Below, piece by piece: positions 5,470-20,573 of a stretch of 20,573 nt of DNA. Origin of the DNA: an uncultured Acidobacteriota bacterium (GTDB taxonomy: Bacteria; Acidobacteriota; Vicinamibacteria; Vicinamibacterales; UBA8438); NCBI GenBank assembly GCA_913043225.1, contig CAJWLU010000040.1:1-20573 (forward strand), written 5' to 3'. The position numbers were made by a program, and so were the translations under genes. The notes beneath the pieces are model-generated. The model did not search any database. It saw only the letters and a list, made by a program, of their open reading frames with translations, and was not told where the DNA came from. How positions within the stretch are numbered: position 1 is the stretch's first letter; each line of letters begins with the position of its first letter.

Positions 5470-5624
5470 GCGTTGCTCCTTCGGGCGCCGGGACACCGGA
5501 TTGTCGACAAGGCGAGAATAGCGAGAACCAGGTGGACGCACACACTACAATGGGCGCTTCTGAACACCGATGTGGCAGCTCGCATCGGACGCGCACCCTG
5601 AAAGACACTGGAGGCTCTCTCAAG

Positions 5625-6551
5625 ATGACGACCCTTAACGCGCGCGTGTCGCGGCTCGTGACACCGCTTGGTGCGTTTGCGCTTCTGGCCCTTGGAGTGC
5701 CCCTAGCGACGCCATCGACCGCTTTCGGCCAGGAGCAGGTGCTCTACATCAGCGCGACTGGGGTCACCGGCTCGCCGGTCTCCGATCTCACCGCCGAGGA
5801 AATCGTCGTGCAGTGGGACGGCGAGGACACCGAGATCGTCGAACTCGAATTAATCGAGTGGCCGGTCCAGGTCACCATGATGGTCGACAACGGACGTGGC
5901 GGCCGCGAACACATCGATCAGATCCGGGCCGGCCTAAAGGCGTTCATCGCGGCGCTTCCCGAAGGCGTCGAGATGGCGCTAGTCGCTACCTCTGACGAAG
6001 TGCTGAGCGTGACCGACTACACCAGCGACAAGGCGGCGCTGACGGCCGGGGTCGACGAAATGGAACGGGGCAACGACGACGCCTACTTCCTAGACGCCAT
6101 GATCGCGGCAGCCGCAACAGTGGCCGCAGCCGAGCGCGAGTTCTTCCCGGTATTCGTCAACCTGGCGACCGACAAGGACGAGGGCAGCGAGGGTGACCAG
6201 GCCGCGTTCGAGGGCATGGTAAACAACGTGGCCACAAACGCCGGCACCGTGCATACACGACTGCTCTACACCGAGGATGGCGACGCAGATCAGAGCATGC
6301 AGGCGCTAGTTGGCCCGATCGGCCAGCAGACCCCGGGCGGCTCCTACGAAGCCATCGCGGACGTGACGACCCTCGAGGCGAACCTGACGGCCCTGGCCGA
6401 GAACATCGCCCGCAAGAACGGGCTGGTGAGTGTGCAGTATCGCGTGCGGTACAACCCACCAGCCAACGCCGGCCCAGCGCCTAACATCTCGGTGGCCTCG
6501 ACCCGGGTGGGACTCAACCTAATTCCGACGATCGACGGTAACCTGCCCTAA
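5625..6551 (+). CDS. Secreted VWA-like domain protein (Acidobacteria VWFA-related type)
   Basis: SD GGAGG before ATG 5625. Signal peptide ending AFG-Q. G-x-PV-x-DLT-x-EE N-terminal module, then VTMMVDNG (degenerate MIDAS), DYTSDK, and a C-terminal YRVRY strand. Confidence 0.78.
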   Translation: MTTLNARVSRLVTPLGAFALLALGVPLATPSTAFGQEQVLYISATGVTGSPVSDLTAEEIVVQWDGEDTEIVELELIEWPVQVTMMVDNGRGGREHIDQIRAGLKAFIAALPEGVEMALVATSDEVLSVTDYTSDKAALTAGVDEMERGNDDAYFLDAMIAAAATVAAAEREFFPVFVNLATDKDEGSEGDQAAFEGMVNNVATNAGTVHTRLLYTEDGDADQSMQALVGPIGQQTPGGSYEAIADVTTLEANLTALAENIARKNGLVSVQYRVRYNPPANAGPAPNISVASTRVGLNLIPTIDGNLP

Positions 6552-6581
6552 CTTCTTGACGCACCCGTGTCGTCTGGACGG

Positions 6582-8198
6582 TCACTCGCGACCGTCCGGG
6601 CGCGGGGAATTCTGTCGGGCGCGAGCCAGGTCCTCGAAGACCGTGGCCAACGCCGGGAAGGTCGCGATCAAGGTCCGGAAGTCACCCCGCCCAATCGTCA
6701 GCACATCGACAGGCGTCAAGGCGGTCACAGTCGAATTCCGAGGCACCACATCAAGGAGCGCCGCCTCGCCGAAGTAATCTCCTGCCTCGAGCACAGCCAG
6801 CCGCTCCGGCCGACCGTCGAGACCGCGGCGGCTCACCGCCACCCGACCGGTCCGTACCACGAACAACTTGTCACCGAAGTCACCCTCGCGCACCAGTTCC
6901 TCTCCCTCGTCGAAGTGCTCGGCCGAGATTGAACTGGTCCGGTCGGTCTTGAGCTGCACGATGTCCTGACGCAGGACCAGATCGAGCGTCCAGTCGGTGG
7001 CCACGCGGAGCTTGCGATCCAATCCTGGCAGCTTGAGCAAGTAAACGGTGCGCCACACCCACCAGGCGAACAATCCGGAGAGCTTGAATCCGAATACCTG
7101 GGCCACGGCCGACCGCCGTCCCAACGACACGAGCTGTCCAAGCGACGAGAACGAGAACGTAGTCTGGGCTGAACCATCGATCGCGGCAAGGATATTGTCA
7201 GCGGCGCAACGGGCCTCTCGGATAGCGTGCTGTGCGGTCGGCGGCGCCGGCCGGCCGGTGCGCGTCTCGGTCACCGCCGCGCAATCCCCGACTGCCCACA
7301 CCCGATCTAACCCAGGCACCGCGAGATGCGCGTCGACCGGCACCCGGCCGCGATGCAGCTCTACCGGCAGTGTCTGGAGAAGCGGGTTCGGACCGGAAGG
7401 CACGGTACTAACGATTGTCCTGGTCTCTAGTCGATCGCCCGTCGACATTCGTGCCCCCGTAGCGGTCGCTACTTCGAGCCGGGTGCCAAGTCGGATCTCC
7501 ATGCCCCGCCGGGTCAGCAGCCGGTGGGCGAACCGGCCCAGACTCTCATCGAGCTCAGGCAGAATCCGATCGCCGGAATGCAGCAACACCACACGAAGCT
7601 CGGCCGCATCGAGACCTCGGTAGTCCCGGACGACTTCGTGCACGAAGTCGTTGAGCTCGGCCGCCAACTCCACTCCGGAGAAGCCACCGCCAGCCACGAC
7701 GAACGACATGAGCCCGCGTCGGACCTCCGGGTCGATCTCCACCGCGGCTTCCTCGAGGACGTTAAGTACGTGATTTCGGACTTGCAACGCATCGCCCAAC
7801 GACTTAAACGGAAGGGCATGCTCACGCCCTCCTGGAAGGTCGCCAAGAGCGGGGACGTTGCCCAGCGCGACCACTAGATGATCGAAACCGAGCACCACGG
7901 GCCGAGGGCGCACGCCCGGTCGCAGCGTGACGGTACGAGCCGTTAGATCGACGGAGTCGATCTCCCGGGTGTAGAGCCGGGTGCGGGGACACAGACGACG
8001 GAGCGGTGCGATCGTGTCGACAAGCCCGATACTGGCCGAGACGACTTCGGGGATGAGCGGTTGGAAGATGAGGTAGTTTTCACGGCTGACGAGTGACAAC
8101 TCGACGTCGTCTCGACGCCTGAGCCGCCGCTCGAGCCGCATCGCCGCGTAGACCCCGGCGAACCCGCCACCGAGGATCAGTATCCGTTGTCGATTCAC
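6582..8198 (-). CDS. Type II NADH dehydrogenase-like FAD oxidoreductase fused to a C-terminal cyclic nucleotide-binding domain
   Basis: Two Rossmann motifs (ILILGGGFAG; VVAGGGFSGVELAAEL), FQPLIPEV, WAVGDCA, PPTAQHA and GLFAWWVWRTVYL. Followed by a CAP_ED domain: GEELVREGDFGDKLFVVRTGRV...GDYFGEAALL...PRNSTV. Confidence 0.93.
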   Translation of the reverse strand: MNRQRILILGGGFAGVYAAMRLERRLRRRDDVELSLVSRENYLIFQPLIPEVVSASIGLVDTIAPLRRLCPRTRLYTREIDSVDLTARTVTLRPGVRPRPVVLGFDHLVVALGNVPALGDLPGGREHALPFKSLGDALQVRNHVLNVLEEAAVEIDPEVRRGLMSFVVAGGGFSGVELAAELNDFVHEVVRDYRGLDAAELRVVLLHSGDRILPELDESLGRFAHRLLTRRGMEIRLGTRLEVATATGARMSTGDRLETRTIVSTVPSGPNPLLQTLPVELHRGRVPVDAHLAVPGLDRVWAVGDCAAVTETRTGRPAPPTAQHAIREARCAADNILAAIDGSAQTTFSFSSLGQLVSLGRRSAVAQVFGFKLSGLFAWWVWRTVYLLKLPGLDRKLRVATDWTLDLVLRQDIVQLKTDRTSSISAEHFDEGEELVREGDFGDKLFVVRTGRVAVSRRGLDGRPERLAVLEAGDYFGEAALLDVVPRNSTVTALTPVDVLTIGRGDFRTLIATFPALATVFEDLARARQNSPRPDGRE

Positions 8199-8207
8199 CG
8201 GCGCGGC

Positions 8208-8354
8208 TCACTGGGATTCACGGAAACACGCGGTTAGGCGTTCACCCGTGCCCTCGACCACGGGAAACGGCTCGGTCTCGAAAATGGAGAGCAGGAGGTC
8301 TTCCTCGGTCTTGCGGACGTGACCGGTGTCGGTTTCGGGGTGGGCCGTCACCAT
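8208..8354 (-). CDS. Small hypothetical protein (48 aa; below the ORF-track cutoff)
   Basis: MVTAHPETDTGHVRKTEEDLLLSIFETEPFPVVEGTGERLTACFRESQ. SD-like GAGGGA before the ATG, mostly G/C third positions, stop 9 nt before the NDH-2 GTG, and TAGAAT -10 at 8412-8407. Confidence 0.6.
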   Translation of the reverse strand: MVTAHPETDTGHVRKTEEDLLLSIFETEPFPVVEGTGERLTACFRESQ

Positions 8355-8539
8355 GGCATCCCTCGCGCGATGATCGCGGCCGCCGGGCGAATCCCGACGG
8401 GAGACAATTCTACTTCCCAGGACGGGCCAGATGACTCGTGGACGGGATAATCTCGCGAGGGCCGCCAGCGAACAATCCCGATGTCGGCCGTTACGCTACC
8501 ATACAGTCCGCGGGTCCCTTCAGGGGTCGCATCCCGCCA

Positions 8540-10072
8540 ATGTTCATCCTGAGCTATACCCAGAACGGCGTCGCCCGACGGCACCAGCTACAGCCCGGCA
8601 CCACGCTGGTCGGCCGCGCGCCCGAGTGCGACCTGCTGATCGAAGACCAGAGCATCTCTCGACACCATGCCGAATTTTCGGTGACCGACACGGCGTGCGA
8701 GGTCCGGGATCTGGGAAGCCTCAACGGGACCTATCGTAACGGCCGGGGGGTGACGCGGGTCACGGTGGGCGGCGGCGACACACTCACGCTGGGGCAGTTA
8801 CCGGTCCAGGTGCACGAGTCGCATGAGGAGCAACTTACGCTCACCGACGATGTGGTCGTCCTCGACGAGGAGCGCACGCTCTCCCGGTCGGTGTCCCAGC
8901 TGGGCACCCCAGAAACGAGGGTGTCAGGCGTCGACGCTCCACGCCTACTGTCGCTCCTTTCGGCTCTGGGACGCCTCCTGATCGAGACCGATACCCTCGC
9001 GGACCTCCTCGAGCGAGTCGCCGAACTGGTCTTCGACGCAGTGCCAGCCGATCGGTGCTATCTGCTGCTTGGCGGTCCCGACGACATCCCCAGCCCGCGA
9101 GTGGTGCGGCAGCGAAACGGCCAGCCCCCGGCAGACGCGTCAATCAGCCGGACCATCATCAATCGCGTCCAGCAGGATCAGGTGGCGATGCTGGCGGCCA
9201 ACGCCCAGCTTGACCCGCGGCTAGCTACCGGCGAGAGCATCCAGATGCAGAACATCCGCGCGTTCATGTGCGCGCCATTGTGGAACCGGACCGACGTCAT
9301 CGGTGTGCTCTACGCCGACAGCCCGGAGGTGGACCGCTTCGTCGCCGCGGATCTCGATCTGTTCACCGCGCTGGCGAACTCCGCCGCCGTCCTGATCGAG
9401 CGGGCGCGACTCGCCGATCGGGTGCTGGAAGAAAGGCGCCGACGCGAACGGCTGCAGCGCTATCATTCGCCGGCAGTCGTCGAGCGGATCCTGGACGATG
9501 CCCACGCCGGTGACGGTGCCTTCCTCGCGCAGGAGCGCGAGGTGAGCGTTCTGTTCGCCGACCTAGTGGGCTTCACGAGTCGCGCCGAACGGCTCCCACC
9601 AAATGAAGTGGCCCATCTGCTCAACGGCTGCCTGGGCACGATGAGCGAAGCGGTCTTCGAACAGGATGGGATGCTCGACAAATTCATGGGCGACGCACTG
9701 CTCGCCGTGTTCGGCGCGCCGTTCGATCAGCCCGACCACGCGCTGCGGGCGGTGCGGGCCGCGACTGGTATCCGGAACAGGCTCGACGCCGCGAACCGCG
9801 AGCGTCCGGACGACCCGCTGGCGGTTCGCATCGCGATCAACAGCGGCCTCGTCATGACGGGCGACATCGGCTCACCGAAACGGCGGGAATACACCGTGCT
9901 CGGCGACGTGGTGAACACCGCGTCCCGGCTCCAGTCCCAGGTCGCCGGCGCGGGAGATATCGTCATCAGCCGCGCCACCTATGACCAGATCCGCGATCAA
10001 GTAACCGCACGGTCGCGTGGCCCCATTACTCTCCGCGGCCGGTCCGAGCCGGTTGAGGTCTTCGAACTCTAG
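8540..10072 (+). CDS. FHA-GAF-class III adenylate cyclase
   Basis: FHA: VGR...ISRHHA...DLGSLNGT. GAF: AFMCAPLW...IGVLYADS...DLDLFTALA. Cyclase: FADLVGFT, DKFMGDA, EYTVLGDVVNTASRLQ. Start chosen at MFILSY because FHA homology begins there. TACCAT at 8497-8502. Confidence 0.95.
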   Translation: MFILSYTQNGVARRHQLQPGTTLVGRAPECDLLIEDQSISRHHAEFSVTDTACEVRDLGSLNGTYRNGRGVTRVTVGGGDTLTLGQLPVQVHESHEEQLTLTDDVVVLDEERTLSRSVSQLGTPETRVSGVDAPRLLSLLSALGRLLIETDTLADLLERVAELVFDAVPADRCYLLLGGPDDIPSPRVVRQRNGQPPADASISRTIINRVQQDQVAMLAANAQLDPRLATGESIQMQNIRAFMCAPLWNRTDVIGVLYADSPEVDRFVAADLDLFTALANSAAVLIERARLADRVLEERRRRERLQRYHSPAVVERILDDAHAGDGAFLAQEREVSVLFADLVGFTSRAERLPPNEVAHLLNGCLGTMSEAVFEQDGMLDKFMGDALLAVFGAPFDQPDHALRAVRAATGIRNRLDAANRERPDDPLAVRIAINSGLVMTGDIGSPKRREYTVLGDVVNTASRLQSQVAGAGDIVISRATYDQIRDQVTARSRGPITLRGRSEPVEVFEL

Positions 10073-10220
10073 TCAGGGAATTCGCCATTCGTTCTAGTGC
10101 TCCGCCGCAAGGGTACAAGAGGGTCGCCACACCTCGTACTACAGGGGTTGCGAAGTAGCGACGGGAACACTACTGTTAGCCGGTATCTGCAAGGCTAGAC
10201 TGCCCCCCTCGAGATACGTC

Positions 10221-11828
10221 ATGCGCATCAAGCTCAGAACCGACCCGCCGTCCCGGCCCGGGAACCGGCACAGTATCTCGTTTCTACTGGTCTCCCTGCT
10301 GGCGTCCGGCATACCAGCAATCGCCCAAGTCGGCGGGCCGGCGCAGGTACTCACCGCCGCCGACGTCACCGCGCTGATCACGACGGCGGCGACGGCTCTC
10401 GACGACAGCTCGCTGGCCGTAGCAGTCGTTGACCGCCGAGGCGCCATCCTCGGCGTATACGGGCGGCCGGCCACCCCGCCTCGGACACCTGACATCGCGG
10501 TGTCACTGGCACGGACCACCGCATTCTTCAGTAACGACCAAGCGCCGTTGTCATCTCGCACGGTGAGATTCATCAGCGGCATCCACTTCCCGGCCGGAGT
10601 ACCGAATACCCCCCCGGCGGCACTCTACGGCGTGGAAAACATCAACCGCGGCTGCGACCTTGGCCCGTTCAACTCTGGGGTCGCGATTCCGCGGCCGCGG
10701 TCTCTGGCCGGCACGGTCGGGACCGGAGCGGGCAACGTGCCGCTTCCCTGCAACCCACGCGACACACGTGGCTGCGCGGTCGGGGGACCAATCGAGGGAC
10801 AGGACGGCTCGCCTATCTACTCGCTTGGTATCACGACCGGGAAGCCCAACCTCGAGGACTCGCCGAATGCATTCCCCGCCACCGGTGGCGGTCTCGAGGA
10901 CGTCGATCCGGGCGGAATCCCGCTCTATCGCAGCGGCAAGCTGATCGGTGGCATTGGCGTCGCCGGAGTACCCCCAGACCGTGCTCAATACGCGGCGCTG
11001 GTGGCGGCGGCGGCCACCGGACGCGGACTCACGACGGCGCTGGACTTCCCAAACGCGCTGCCATTCCCTGGCGCGGTCTTTATCGACGGGATCCGGCTGC
11101 CGTTCTACGGGTCGTGCGGCACCAATCTGAGGTGTATCCAGGCAGAGGCTGACGGCCGACCGAGCGGCACCGCGCCCGGGTCATTTAGCCAAGGCAGCAT
11201 GCTGGTGCCACCGCAATCGGGCGCCGACGCTCCCGAGGGCTATCTTATCGGTCCGCGGGGAAGCCCAGGTGGCGGACTAACGCGAGCCGACGTCGAGCAA
11301 ATCGTCAATCAGGCGCTCGCCACCGCCGACATCACCCGGGCGCAGGTGCGGCTGCCCTTCGGGCAGACTGCCAAGGTCATCATCGCGGTCACCGATGCGA
11401 GGGGCGCGGTGCTAGCGGAGTACCGCATGGCTGACGCGCTCTTCGACGCCGTAGACGTGGTGCCGTCGAAAGCGCGTAACGCCTACTACTTCAGCAGCCG
11501 CGAGGGCTATGAAGTGCTCCGTGGCTACGTCGAACGGAGCACGGCGGACGATTACACGTGGGAACCAGAACCGCCGGATCCGCAGTTCGGCTGGGCGCTG
11601 ACCAGCCGCACGATCGGGTTCGGCGGGCAACCGCTGTTTCCGCCGGGAATCGACCTCGAAAAGACGCCGACCGAAGACGGTCCTGGATATCCCACGCCTA
11701 GCGGTAGGACACGCGCCAGATATACAACTTGCGCGCGATCACGGCCTGCCAGCCACAACCCTCAATTCGTCGAAACTGCCCTGAGCTACGCCGTGAACCG
11801 ATCGAACATGTCTTTCGGCGCCCCTTAG
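10221..11828 (+). CDS. Secreted tandem GlcG/HbpS-like heme-binding protein, apparently C-terminally truncated near 11685
   Basis: Signal peptide ending AIA-Q. Domain 1 is complete: LTAADV...AVAVVDRRG...SLARTTAFFS...GGIPLYRSGKLIGGIGVAG. Domain 2 (LTRADV...IAVTDARG...SKARNAYYFS...LTSRT) lacks the closing GG-x-P...GG-x-GV motif. Confidence 0.78.
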   Translation: MRIKLRTDPPSRPGNRHSISFLLVSLLASGIPAIAQVGGPAQVLTAADVTALITTAATALDDSSLAVAVVDRRGAILGVYGRPATPPRTPDIAVSLARTTAFFSNDQAPLSSRTVRFISGIHFPAGVPNTPPAALYGVENINRGCDLGPFNSGVAIPRPRSLAGTVGTGAGNVPLPCNPRDTRGCAVGGPIEGQDGSPIYSLGITTGKPNLEDSPNAFPATGGGLEDVDPGGIPLYRSGKLIGGIGVAGVPPDRAQYAALVAAAATGRGLTTALDFPNALPFPGAVFIDGIRLPFYGSCGTNLRCIQAEADGRPSGTAPGSFSQGSMLVPPQSGADAPEGYLIGPRGSPGGGLTRADVEQIVNQALATADITRAQVRLPFGQTAKVIIAVTDARGAVLAEYRMADALFDAVDVVPSKARNAYYFSSREGYEVLRGYVERSTADDYTWEPEPPDPQFGWALTSRTIGFGGQPLFPPGIDLEKTPTEDGPGYPTPSGRTRARYTTCARSRPASHNPQFVETALSYAVNRSNMSFGAP

Positions 11829-16973: not shown

Positions 16974-17870
16974 ATGCGACATTCGACGATCCGTCTCACT
17001 TCGCTCGTGTTTCTCACACTCCTTGCGGTGAGTGTCGCCGGTCCAGCCGACGCGCAGTCACGAGGCCAGCTGTTTGCCCGCATCACCGACCAGGACGGCA
17101 CACCCGTCGAGGGACTGACCGCCGACAAGTTCGTGGTCCAGGAAGGTGGTGCGAACATGGACATCGTCTCGGTCGAGCCGGGGACCACACCGATGAAAAT
17201 GGCGCTGCTGGTCGACAATGGCGAAACGGTGTCGGTCGGGGGTGCGCTGGGCCTCCTCCGAGGTTCGATGCAGAGATTCTTCGAGACGCTGGAAGGCGAA
17301 CATGAGATCGCCATCTACAGCATCGCTGGCAACATTACGGAGGTACAGGACTTCACGAGCGATCGCGAAGTGCTAATCGAAGCCTCAGACGGCCTGTTCG
17401 GCGGCAGAGGCGGCAGCCGATTCATCGATGGCATCATGGAGACCTGGGAACGGCGTTTCTCGCCAGACGACTTCTGGCCGGTCATCACCGTGCTCACCAC
17501 CGACGGTCCGGAAGGCAGCGGCAACGTCAACGAGAACGAGTTCAGCGACTTTGTGATCGACCTGGTGGGCAAGGCCGCCACGGTCAACGTGCTCGTGCTG
17601 TCGACGCAAGGTGGCGGTCTCCAGACCCAGATTGGCCAGAACCTCACCTCGAACACTACCGGCTACTACAACTCAATCGTGGCTCCCAGCGGCCTCTCCA
17701 ATGCGATGGAAGGGATGGCCAACGCCATCAACGAACACTACACCGAGATGTCGGATCGCTACCGGCTGGTGTACGAGCGCCCGGGTGACGAGCCTGGCGG
17801 CCAGGTCGGCGCCGGTGTGGCGGGCCAGCTAAACATGCAACTGTTCGGCGACCGTCGCCGGCAGCAGTAA
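16974..17870 (+). CDS. Secreted VWA-like domain protein (paralog of 5625-6551)
   Basis: Signal peptide ending ADA-Q. DQDGTPVEGLTADKFVVQEGG, MALLVDNG, DFTSDRE, LTTDGPE, and YRLVY. SD GGAG. Confidence 0.82.
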   Translation: MRHSTIRLTSLVFLTLLAVSVAGPADAQSRGQLFARITDQDGTPVEGLTADKFVVQEGGANMDIVSVEPGTTPMKMALLVDNGETVSVGGALGLLRGSMQRFFETLEGEHEIAIYSIAGNITEVQDFTSDREVLIEASDGLFGGRGGSRFIDGIMETWERRFSPDDFWPVITVLTTDGPEGSGNVNENEFSDFVIDLVGKAATVNVLVLSTQGGGLQTQIGQNLTSNTTGYYNSIVAPSGLSNAMEGMANAINEHYTEMSDRYRLVYERPGDEPGGQVGAGVAGQLNMQLFGDRRRQQ

Positions 17871-17930: not shown

Positions 17931-19340
17931 ATGTCTAGGCTGCCAGCCGCGGGATCCACCGCCCCCGCCTTCTCGCTCGGTGATCGTGCCGGCGGCCAGG
18001 TCGACCTTACCGAGGTCGCTGCCCCTGGCACACTCCTCTTCTTCTTCAAACACGACTGCGACACCTGCGACCTGACGGCGCCGCTCGTGGTTCGCCTACA
18101 AGACGCCCTGGCGACGAGCGGCCTGCTGTTCGTCGGTGTCTCACAGGACGACCCGAGCCACACGACCGTCTTCGTCGACCGTCACCAGCTCAGCTTCCCC
18201 ATTGCGCTCGACTCCGAACTCCATGTCTCGGACGACTACGGGTTCGATGCGGTGCCCGCACTCGTCCTGCTGGGACCGGATCGTCAGGTACTGGCCAGCT
18301 ACGAGGGCTTCGCACGAACCGATCTGGCCGGTCTGATCGAGTTCGCGGCCAAGCAATGTGGCGCCGAGACACCGCCTATCGTGACCGAGAGCGATGGCTT
18401 GCCCAAGATGCGTCCGGGCTGCGGTTCAAAAGCGCACGCTCCGGACGTGGCCCAGCGCCTGGCGGTCCGTCGGGGCGCAGCTGTGCTTAGCGCGAGACGG
18501 GTTCGGGTGCCGGTCGACGACGACCCCTTCGAGTTTCTCGCGGCCCAAGGGCTCGGCGATGGGCTTCCCGTGGTACCTCCCACCGAGGAACGGGTGCTCC
18601 GGATGCTCGAGGGCACGAGTCGCAGCCCATCGGACGTGGTGGCCCACATCCCGCCAAACCTGACCCCGGCGACGGTCGAGAAGGTCGCGATCAATGCGGT
18701 TATGTCCGGCTGTTTGCCCGAGTATCTTCCAGTGGTCATCGCCGCGGCCGAAGCCGCCTGCACCGACGAGTTCAACCTGCACGGCGTGCTGGCCACTACC
18801 TACTTCGCCACGCCGGTGATCGTGGTCAACGGACCGATCCGGGACGAGATCGACGTCAACTGCGGCCGGAACATGTTCGGGCAAGGGTTCCGCGCCAACG
18901 CGACGATCGGACGTGCCCTGCAACTGCTAGTCCGGAACGTCGGAGGCGGACGCCCCGGCGACGTCGACATGTCGACGCTGGGACAACCTGGTAAGTTCAC
19001 CTGCTGCGTGGGGGAGCGGGAAGACCTCAGCCCCTGGGAACCGTTGCACGTCGAGCGCGGATTCTCACCGGAAACCAGTACCGTCACGGTCTTCGCGGGC
19101 GAGGCGCCACGCGCCATTCGCGACCAGCTCTCCCGCTCCGCCCGATCGCTCGGCGCCAGCATGGGCTGGTGCCTCGAATGCCATCGTGATCCGGCGCCGC
19201 ATGTGCGGAATCCAGATCTCGTCACCCAGTTGGAATGGGGATGGGACATGGGAGCCGCGGAGCGACTGGCCGAGGGTGCCCACTGGCTGTCCGCCAATCA
19301 CCTCAACCCGTCACAGGACTGCTCGACATGCCACCGATGA
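17931..19340 (+). CDS. Chimeric ORF: AhpC/TSA-TlpA thioredoxin domain + truncated 'DGLPVVPPT' domain, fused in frame to the ActA C-terminus
   Basis: CDTC thioredoxin motif and cis-Pro VP, RPGCGS linker, GDGLPVVPPTEERV, TVEKVAINAVMSGC, GFRANATIGRALQL. From about 19160 the sequence reads SMGWCLECHR...CSTCHR. Confidence 0.8.
   Translation: MSRLPAAGSTAPAFSLGDRAGGQVDLTEVAAPGTLLFFFKHDCDTCDLTAPLVVRLQDALATSGLLFVGVSQDDPSHTTVFVDRHQLSFPIALDSELHVSDDYGFDAVPALVLLGPDRQVLASYEGFARTDLAGLIEFAAKQCGAETPPIVTESDGLPKMRPGCGSKAHAPDVAQRLAVRRGAAVLSARRVRVPVDDDPFEFLAAQGLGDGLPVVPPTEERVLRMLEGTSRSPSDVVAHIPPNLTPATVEKVAINAVMSGCLPEYLPVVIAAAEAACTDEFNLHGVLATTYFATPVIVVNGPIRDEIDVNCGRNMFGQGFRANATIGRALQLLVRNVGGGRPGDVDMSTLGQPGKFTCCVGEREDLSPWEPLHVERGFSPETSTVTVFAGEAPRAIRDQLSRSARSLGASMGWCLECHRDPAPHVRNPDLVTQLEWGWDMGAAERLAEGAHWLSANHLNPSQDCSTCHR
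19158..19340 (+). pseudogene. actA: 3' remnant of alternative complex III multiheme cytochrome c subunit
   Basis: MGWCLECHRDP and terminal DCSTCHR* match the last two heme motifs of ActA. The stop overlaps the actB start (ATGA), as in act operons. The N-terminal TM helix and earlier hemes are absent. Confidence 0.8.
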
Positions 19341-20573
19341 AGCATGAAGATTCAGGCCGGTCCTACTGGCGAAGCCTCGATGAACTGGCGGATACGCCGG
19401 AGTTCAAGACGTTCATGCACCGCGAGTTTCCAGCGGGCGCATCGGAGTTGATGGAGGATGATCGTCGGTCCTTCCTGAAGATCATGGGCGCCTCCATCGC
19501 GCTTGCGGGCGTGGGTCTTACCGGCTGTCGCCGTTGGCCTGAGCAGATGGTCCTTCCCTACGCCGAGCGACCGGAAGGTTCCGCGCCGGGGATGGCGGAT
19601 GCCTATGCAACAATCATGGAACTCGGTGGCGTGGCCACCGGTACCCTCGTGACGTCATACAACGGCCGACCGACGAAGATCGAGGGCAACCCCGATCATC
19701 CCGGCAGTCACGGTGCGACGACGCGCTACATGCAGGCGAGCATCCTGGACCTCTACGATCCCGATCGTTCCCGCACGCCGAAGATCGCCGGGGAAGAGAA
19801 GCGGACAAGTGCGACGTGGGATGAATGGGACTCCTTCTCCGCAACGCATTTCGATGCCCTCAGGAGCAGCGGCGGGGCGGGCTTCTGGATTCTCTCCGAG
19901 GCGACCCGCTCACCGAGCATCGAGGCGCAGCAGGCAGAGTTGCGATCCCAGTTCCCCAAGGCCACCTGGGTCACGTGGGAACCCCTCCAGAACGCGAACG
20001 AGGCCGAGGGTCTGACCGAGGCCTTCGGCATCCGCGTTCGCCCCGTGCATGACCTGACCAAGGCACGCCTGATCGTCTCCTTCGATTCCGACTTCCTGAA
20101 CGTGAATCCCGATGTCCTGAACATGTCCGGTGGCTGGGCCGCGGGCCGTCGTCCGGACCATGGTTCCATGAGCCGCATGCTGATGGTCGAATCCGGGCTG
20201 AGTGTCACGGGTTCGACGGCCGATGATCGTTGGGCCATGCCCTCCTCGAGGATCCCGGTGCTGGTCGCTCGCGTCGCGGCCAACGTCCTGGGCAACGCCT
20301 CCATCGCCGAACCATTCAAGGACAGCGGCGTCGAGACACCGGACGCGGACCTCATTGCCGATCAACTGAAGGGTGCGGCCGGTACGGGCGCAATCCTGGC
20401 CGGCCCGTCGCAGCCTCCTTTCGTTCACCGCCTCGTCGCGATGATGAATGATGCGTTGGGCAATGCCGGGACCACCGTTTCCCACATTCGCGAGAACGCC
20501 GAGTCGATCCGCACCGCTTCGATCAACGACCTCGCGTCCGGAATGAACGCCGGTGGCGTGGAAACGCTGCTGA
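19337..20573 (+). CDS. actB: Alternative complex III molybdopterin-oxidoreductase-like subunit, 5' part (runs off the right edge; not in the ORF track)
   Basis: Manual translation: MKHEDSGRSYWRSLDELADTPEF...REFP...DRRSFLKIMGASIALAGVGLTGC (TAT signal plus Cys)...GRPTKIEGNPDHP...QASILDLYDPDRS. The frame stays open to the window end. Confidence 0.94.
   Translation, partial: MKHEDSGRSYWRSLDELADTPEFKTFMHREFPAGASELMEDDRRSFLKIMGASIALAGVGLTGCRRWPEQMVLPYAERPEGSAPGMADAYATIMELGGVATGTLVTSYNGRPTKIEGNPDHPGSHGATTRYMQASILDLYDPDRSRTPKIAGEEKRTSATWDEWDSFSATHFDALRSSGGAGFWILSEATRSPSIEAQQAELRSQFPKATWVTWEPLQNANEAEGLTEAFGIRVRPVHDLTKARLIVSFDSDFLNVNPDVLNMSGGWAAGRRPDHGSMSRMLMVESGLSVTGSTADDRWAMPSSRIPVLVARVAANVLGNASIAEPFKDSGVETPDADLIADQLKGAAGTGAILAGPSQPPFVHRLVAMMNDALGNAGTTVSHIRENAESIRTASINDLASGMNAGGVETLL

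Follow-up and report, generated by a model that had tools for sequence, protein, structure and literature searches.

We analyzed a 20,573-nt stretch of DNA (the window), contig C40 of the source genome G000 (3.85 Mb, 96% complete) of an uncultured Acidobacteriota bacterium, in which the gene for P0001, an NDH-2-like flavoprotein fused to a C-terminal cyclic nucleotide-binding (cNMP) domain, lies head-to-head with the gene for P0003, an FHA-GAF-class III nucleotide cyclase. From these sequences we propose, with moderate confidence, that P0001 is an NAD(P)H:quinone oxidoreductase under allosteric control by cyclic AMP (cAMP). The fusion is real and apparently unstudied. The features that make up the locus are as follows.

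6582..8198, minus strand: NDH-2-like flavoprotein with C-terminal cNMP-binding domain, P0001 (538 aa, GTG start; assigned by Pfam)
6609..6929, minus strand: cNMP-binding domain of P0001 (residues ~424-530; pocket residues G477, E478, A480, R487, N488)
8208..8354, minus strand: remnant of a PP2C Ser/Thr phosphatase gene (48 codons; assigned by similarity to PP2C of the related genome G005)
8355..8539, no strand: divergent intergenic region (185 bp; presumed promoter function)
8540..10072, plus strand: FHA-GAF-class III nucleotide cyclase, predicted adenylyl, P0003 (510 aa; assigned by Pfam)

An earlier note had described the NDH-2-like gene with its cNMP domain opposite the FHA-GAF-cyclase gene and a 48-aa open reading frame (ORF) between them, and this was confirmed by Pfam and by contigs of other sequencing runs. 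Proteins closely related to those of the window carry Vicinamibacterales or Acidobacteriota labels, and the window DNA was matched in marine and seawater runs; one contig from another seawater run covers 6403-10300 with 144 substitutions and a single 1-nt gap outside the genes, and 8100-8600 was covered without indels in three of four further runs. Since contigs of other runs span the same arrangement, an assembly artefact as the source of the head-to-head layout was ruled out. The one RNA run gave four contigs of 151-288 nt. A cyclase start at GTG 8438 was rejected, the ATG at 8540 being backed by the starts of orthologues and by 510-aa database calls. This ATG lies 185 bp from that of the 48-aa ORF, and an alignment of eight family members revealed by eye two -10-like hexamers at 8407-8412 (minus strand) and 8497-8502 (plus strand). 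A sigma-70 scan found no full promoter in the 185-bp region, and a scan for promoters and terminators gave no match above chance.

P0001 matched the Pfam profiles Pyr_redox_2 (E 1e-37), NDH2_C (8e-9), and cNMP_binding (PF00027; 1e-21, profile positions 2-88 of 89, residues 427-513). NDH-2s ranked first by sequence and by fold, with 9mqy and 4nwz as the best solved relatives. Residues were counted in an alignment of 178 family sequences, and the criteria of NDH-2 membership were taken from passages of a survey of 1,762 NDH-2s (PMC5299459). Both GxGxxG motifs are kept: G10/G12/G15 in 174 of the 178 sequences (four have gaps), and the second, of the GxGxxGxE form with the Glu E177, in every sequence (G170/G172/G175/E177). 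The YD/FD pair (F105-D106) and the GD motif (G304-D305) are present. The quinone-site motif is AQxAxR, which together with AQxAxQ and APxAxQ is among the variants given in those passages and accounts for 15% of NDH-2s there; its Q323 is invariant and R327 occurs in 177 of 178 sequences. The C-terminal membrane module is also recognized, with NDH2_C above the cut-off, two helices (376-389 and 393-408), and an invariant G375. Quinone is the presumed acceptor.

The cNMP domain had been called complete in the earlier note, which holds for the β-barrel, the phosphate-binding cassette (Gly-Glu-x-Ala...Arg), and the pocket, and not for the N-terminal helices that usually belong to such domains according to passages of PMC3080414. 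The B/C helices are present, E478 occurs in all 178 sequences and R487 in 176, and the pocket spacing equals that of G182/E183/A185/R192/T193 in PKG (PMC3080414). In the structure model, a coil at 409-423 is followed by a strand at 424-429, so that the barrel comes straight after a 15-residue linker and helices before it are absent. The residue after the pocket Arg, which in PKG is the cGMP-selecting Thr (PMC3080414), is Asn (N488) in P0001, and a preference for cAMP is therefore suggested. Two other fusions (L087, L096) have lost the conserved pocket Arg. The model was built from 121 sequences, with a mean predicted local confidence (pLDDT) of 91.9 and a predicted template modelling score (pTM) of 0.86, and superseded an earlier one from 38 sequences (pTM 0.67). 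A freely floating 110-residue domain would limit pTM to ~0.78 by a hand calculation. Since the whole-chain value exceeds this ceiling, the model suggests that the cNMP domain docks in a defined pose on the flavoprotein core.

P0003 contains FHA, GAF, and Guanylate_cyc domains, and the solved structures that match it best are those of bacterial class III cyclases. The class III catalytic set is intact: the metal-binding D341 and D385, the substrate residues K381 and T452, and the transition-state residues N459 and R463. In passages of PMC4215837, Lys marks adenylyl and Glu guanylyl cyclases; by its active-site residues P0003 is predicted to be of the adenylyl type. The FHA motifs are intact. 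The NKFDE motif of cNMP-binding GAF domains (passages of PMC4411481) is missing from the GAF domain, in which only the Phe and Asp were found by eye, and P0003 is therefore probably not activated by cAMP in the manner of CyaB. The catalytic residues of P0003 and the pocket residues of P0001 are mutually consistent with cAMP, which P0003 would synthesize and P0001 would bind.

The fusion is widespread, judging from sequences of many phyla, and PF00027 was found in 119 of the 120 best protein matches to P0001 (query included). The neighbors were compared at 80 genome loci of many phyla among the matches listed, comprising 63 fusions and 17 unfused loci, one of the latter being merely cut by the contig end. 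Up to 8 kb on each side was analyzed with a gene caller, and Pfam was run on 106 chosen neighbor proteins out of 350. A class III cyclase was present in the flank of 15 of the 63 fusion loci and of none of the 17 unfused loci (Fisher p 0.018), whereas the cyclase density of each genome predicts 0.9 cyclase-flanked fusion loci (1.45 with all candidates). When other cNMP genes were included, the count rose to 28 of 63 against 0 of 17. In a metagenome set of 80 loci, six of which were truncated and set aside, a cyclase was near 14 of 50 fusions and 0 of 24 unfused genes. The enrichment of cyclases beside the Pyr_redox_2 + cNMP architecture, which the earlier note had proposed as a check, was therefore observed in both sets, against about one locus expected among the genomes.

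Of the 15 cyclase-flanked genome loci, 7 have the cyclase immediately upstream in the same orientation. The neighbor cyclases are dispersed across the tree and carry HAMP, CHASE2, dCache, REC, FHA, FHA-GAF, or DUF5939 modules; this variety favors a repeated recruitment of cyclases beside the fusion. In four other genomes with one PF00211 match (G079, G080, G084, G099), a cyclase sits in the fusion locus. Cyclases of the Glu type are paired with Arg-Ser/Thr (cGMP-type) pockets in 12 of 12 cases and those of the Lys type in 1 of 14; this count includes the window and G005 and excludes two His/Asp neighbors, two unread motifs, and three truncated loci.

Other arrangements were also seen around or within the fusion. 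L095:7899-10058 encodes an NDH-cNMP-FHA fusion, L022:8450-10777 an NDH-cNMP-CBS fusion, and L070:7638-9620 an FHA-NDH-cNMP protein, whose FHA domain precedes the core within the open frame, the start being predicted. In L056 and L060, PP2C and kinase genes are directly upstream of the fusion. In L057, L058, L061, and L062, this position is occupied by a gene of the metallo-β-lactamase fold with a weak, below-cut-off match to a cyclic-nucleotide phosphodiesterase profile, and the fusion is followed by a caspase-TPR gene and then, in three of the four, by a CHASE2 cyclase. The record of L057 is titled Bordetella parapertussis; this label looks wrong, because the protein groups with Bryobacterales copies.

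P0001 differs from the surveyed NDH-2s at the NAD(P)H site. The WxxG motif, which is near the NADH adenine and 99%/100% conserved in the 1,762 NDH-2s according to passages of PMC5299459, is replaced by S264-x-x-P267. Among the 178 family sequences, the Trp occurs in none and the Gly in 4, with Pro in place of the Gly in 169, while both Trp and Gly are kept in the unfused sister clade. Position 207 is His in P0001 and His or Gln, never acidic, across the fusion family. The survey left out fused sequences, and P0001 with its PF00027 domain departs from this data-set rule of no extra fused domain (PMC5299459). Because WxxG is replaced and position 207 is His, P0001 is classed from its sequence as NDH-2-like and is not filed as a canonical NDH-2. 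The absence of the near-invariant WxxG indicates that the NAD(P)H site has been remodelled in the fusion family. The His or Gln at position 207 hints at the use of NADPH, and H207 together with the missing WxxG would fit NADPH or dual NADH/NADPH use by P0001, although the choice between NADH and NADPH is poorly predicted by one residue in passages of PMC11670749.

The same two changes would also be explained if the fusion were gated by cyclic nucleotides but had no role as a respiratory NADH:quinone enzyme. Its remodelled second dinucleotide site would then take another donor or partner (NADPH only, a partner redox protein, or reverse flow), and the enzyme might, for instance, feed cytochrome c or Fe-S chains. 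In line with this, a ~190-aa cNMP-only protein is encoded among cytochrome c genes beside the fusion in 10 genome loci (L023:3415-4005, L026, L035, L039, L044, L048, L049, L055, L080, L081), and Fer4-cNMP(-FHA) proteins are encoded near several more (L040, L045, L056, L079). We nevertheless regard this explanation as unlikely, since P0001 retains both GxGxxG motifs, E177, GD, AQxAxR, and its pair of membrane helices, NDH-2s lead both the sequence and the fold comparison, the residue at 207 does not by itself predict the nucleotide, and cytochrome genes of that type are not beside the window copy.

Comparison with relatives revealed how the two-gene layout arose. In G005, the cyclase (72% identity) faces a gene series that begins with PP2C, continues with a double Ser/Thr kinase carrying a PEGA-like tail, a TPR gene, and a PEGA/PDZ-like gene, and ends with the flavoprotein gene (79%), the PEGA and PDZ labels being a reading of the sequence with no profile match. 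G174 has the full intact cluster, with PP2C, the double kinase, and two TPR/PEGA genes between the cyclase and the fusion. The 48-aa ORF aligns to the start of the G005 PP2C with 54% identity over 37 aa and 71.5% DNA identity over 123 nt, with a score of 90, whereas none of 2000 shuffles exceeded 48. It falls short of a PP2C, with ~37-48 homologous codons of a ~250-aa domain and the first DG Asp changed. Its ratio of non-synonymous to synonymous substitution rates (dN/dS) is 0.92-1.04 against 0.11-0.17 among intact copies (37 codons, noisy). In a sister strain, 6 of 10 changed codons of the ORF are non-synonymous; most sister-strain copies of the flavoenzyme have 6 or 7 changes in 538 residues. 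A functional small protein was rejected on the dN/dS of ~1 and on these sister-strain changes. By these comparisons the ORF is a decaying PP2C remnant, and it may act as a passive translated leader only. G000 holds seven other kinase matches and another PP2C, but no orthologue of the cluster kinase, the TPR gene, or the PEGA gene was found there. Since relatives carry the PP2C-kinase-TPR-PEGA genes in the gap and the ORF is a PP2C stump, the head-to-head layout is, on the sequence comparison, a deletion product of this block. The shared 185-bp promoter region of the earlier note should be read in this light: the layout is present, but it is secondary, and the region ancestrally faced a PP2C-kinase-TPR-PEGA-NDH run.

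The fusion is present in 6 of 104 family genomes, with the cyclase orthologue on the same contig in all six. In G000, G130, and G175, both genes are intact and the block has been lost via three different junctions; in G130 the PP2C start is fused in frame to the tail of the last gene, and in G175, an assembly with 6% contamination, scrambled PEGA pieces remain. G020 was not counted as a reduction independent of G175: the intergenic DNA of G175 (L108:8258-8440) and G020 (L112:7785-7960) is identical save one ambiguous base although the two are placed in different genera, which reflects either transfer or mis-binning. The loci of G020 and G001 stop at contig edges. The dN/dS was ~0.10-0.14 for the flavoprotein core, 0.10-0.28 for the cNMP domain (0.10-0.15 against close relatives), and 0.14-0.25 for the catalytic domain of the cyclase, with dS near saturation. 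Both surviving genes are under purifying selection.

A layout produced by deletion raises the question of a leftover pairing, in which the two genes are no more than the flanks of a kinase operon that has decayed, the target of cAMP is another protein (the patatin-like one described below), and the cNMP domain of the flavoprotein is structural or binds another ligand. The decay of the locus in G005, G173, and perhaps G020 would fit such a history, and signalling genes cluster in general. It appears rather improbable, however, given that the pocket residues are almost invariant, that the cNMP domain has the low dN/dS noted above against close relatives, and that in distant phyla the fusion repeatedly has cyclases of unrelated types as neighbors, with pockets of the corresponding type. 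The ancestral cluster also admits a reverse flow of information, in which the flavoprotein would sense the redox state of NAD(P)H or quinone and its cNMP domain would pass this on, by ligand affinity or a partner protein, to the kinase/cyclase circuit. In favor of this, the fusion is the last gene of the ancestral kinase/phosphatase run, other copies follow PP2C/kinase genes (L056, L060) or carry FHA or CBS domains (L070, L095, L022), and the NAD(P)H site has changed. All catalytic NDH-2 residues except WxxG are kept, though, the fusion has persisted in three genomes that lost the kinase block, and most copies have no output domain, so that we consider such a sensor very improbable.

P0003 is the only PF00211 match in G000. 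Two proteins of this genome contain cNMP domains, namely P0001 and a patatin-like phospholipase with two such domains (L105:1-2259 on contig C3). A Crp helix-turn-helix match was not found in the profile search of G000, nor was an NDH2_C match other than P0001, and these absences are likely real at 96% completeness. One CYTH-family protein and the 49-kDa subunit of complex I were matched. The earlier note had proposed a self-contained pair of signal producer and effector with a phospho-Thr input through FHA. The pair is not self-contained, because the patatin-like protein is a second cNMP receptor, and a kinase that would be cognate to the FHA domain was not found in G000.

In the mechanism that we favor, P0003 would produce cAMP, which would bind the cNMP pocket of P0001 and switch its predicted electron transfer from NAD(P)H to quinone into the membrane. 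The slightly more probable direction, by analogy with PKA, EPAC, and mycobacterial Pat, would be that cAMP activates P0001 by relieving autoinhibition. FHA would ancestrally have coupled cAMP production to the kinase and phosphatase of the cluster, and any phospho-Thr input in G000 would have to come from unlinked kinases. Since complex I is present, P0001 would serve as a signal-gated, non-pumping bypass beside it. More tentatively, and with somewhat less than even confidence, P0001 may represent an unstudied, widespread NDH-2-derived family whose members are directly controlled by cAMP or cGMP, each made by a dedicated cyclase of matching specificity. In this family the adenine pocket would have been rebuilt (WxxG to SxxP, acid to His), turnover would vary with ligand occupancy of the docked cNMP domain, and the window would hold a minimal two-gene form arising from repeated deletions.

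Several observations weigh against gating by cAMP from the neighboring cyclase. The absence of WxxG leaves the use of NAD(P)H not assured, and no cyclase is in the flank at 48 of 63 genome and 36 of 50 metagenome fusion loci. The unfused control consists of one clade (support 0.99) and one truncated locus and is thus close to a single event, and related copies are not independent and inflate the neighbor counts. The matching of cyclase and pocket is confounded by lineage, the Glu-type pairs being mostly of one lineage. The patatin-like receptor and the CYTH-family protein offer other cAMP routes in G000. In G005, a TAG inside the cNMP domain (L021:8177-8179) removes the pocket while the cyclase is kept; such forms of 424-458 aa occur in 9 of 14 cluster members, in several assemblies, with full-length forms in 2, and represent a natural domain-loss allele. 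G173 was withdrawn as a fourth intact reduced form because both its cyclase and fusion genes are broken, and in G180 the cyclase, PP2C, and kinase are present but the fusion was not found.

Known systems share parts of this design. The bacterial NDH-2s of mycobacteria (9mqy), C. thermarum (4nwz), and S. aureus (5na1) resemble P0001 in fold (template modelling scores by target 0.78-0.86, ~25-30% identity) and in the two GxGxxG motifs, the catalytic Glu, GD, the AQxAxR variant, and the two C-terminal helices; P0001 differs from them by SxxP for WxxG, His for the acidic NADH-selecting residue, and the fused cNMP domain. The mycobacterial acetyltransferase Pat is a cAMP-gated enzyme with a fused cNMP domain, as in P0001, but its catalytic domain and domain order differ. 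The cNMP domain of P0001 matched the profile NF058543 weakly (32.6 bits, cut-off 460). Cyanobacterial CyaD-type adenylyl cyclases have an FHA-GAF architecture, and with the GAF cyclase CyaB2 they resemble P0003 in the FHA-GAF-class III layout and the K/T/N/R active-site set; P0003 differs by a single GAF domain without NKFDE (by eye) and by its linkage to an NDH-2-like gene. The EF-hand NDH-2s, plant NDB1 and fungal Nde1, also combine a second-messenger module with an uncharged selectivity residue (passages of PMC11670749), whereas they respond to Ca2+ instead of a cyclic nucleotide, carry the module as an internal insertion and not at the C-terminus, are eukaryotic, and have no linked signal producer. 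The thioredoxin reductase ATII-TrxR, in passages of PMC6544261 that describe no cNMP assay, combines Pyr_redox_2 and PF00027 in one chain, with the cNMP domain N-terminal and disulfide chemistry. Literature searches, whose scope ended short of most subscription journals and supplements, found no description of an NDH-2-cNMP fusion. The fusion was likewise not found in passages of bioRxiv 10.1101/2025.10.14.682086 (0 matches to cyclic, cNMP, or fused), PMC2853384, and PMC13332983. New here are the series of deletion forms, the recognition of the 48-aa ORF as a PP2C remnant, the finding that WxxG has been lost, and the match between pocket and cyclase types.

Beside the cyclase, the window contains a further gene.

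10221..11828, plus strand: HbpS-like gene (PF03928)

It also follows the cyclase in G175, G020, and G130 (73-74% identity), and aligns to these relatives only up to residue 484-490 of 535, so that its end may be truncated or rearranged. Two genes with VWA domains at 5532-6551 and 16974-17870 are related (28% identical). At 17931-20573, an ORF with an AhpC/TSA domain overlaps the next ORF, which has no Pfam match and runs off the contig, and the ends of both look like a junction near 19230.

In bacteria, cAMP is known to reach respiration mainly via CRP-type transcription. If the proposed mechanism is true, a cNMP-gated NDH-2-like enzyme would allow control of NAD(P)H oxidation on the scale of seconds in many uncultured phyla. 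With one class III cyclase match, no Crp helix-turn-helix match, and two cNMP receptors, G000 would offer a clean two-gene system to reconstitute, for which the natural variants (the full cluster, the three reduced forms, the stop before the pocket, and the cGMP-type relatives) are ready controls. The fusion would then be a bacterial counterpart of the Ca2+-gated EF-hand NDH-2s and would bring electron entry into the bacterial quinone pool under post-translational second-messenger control.

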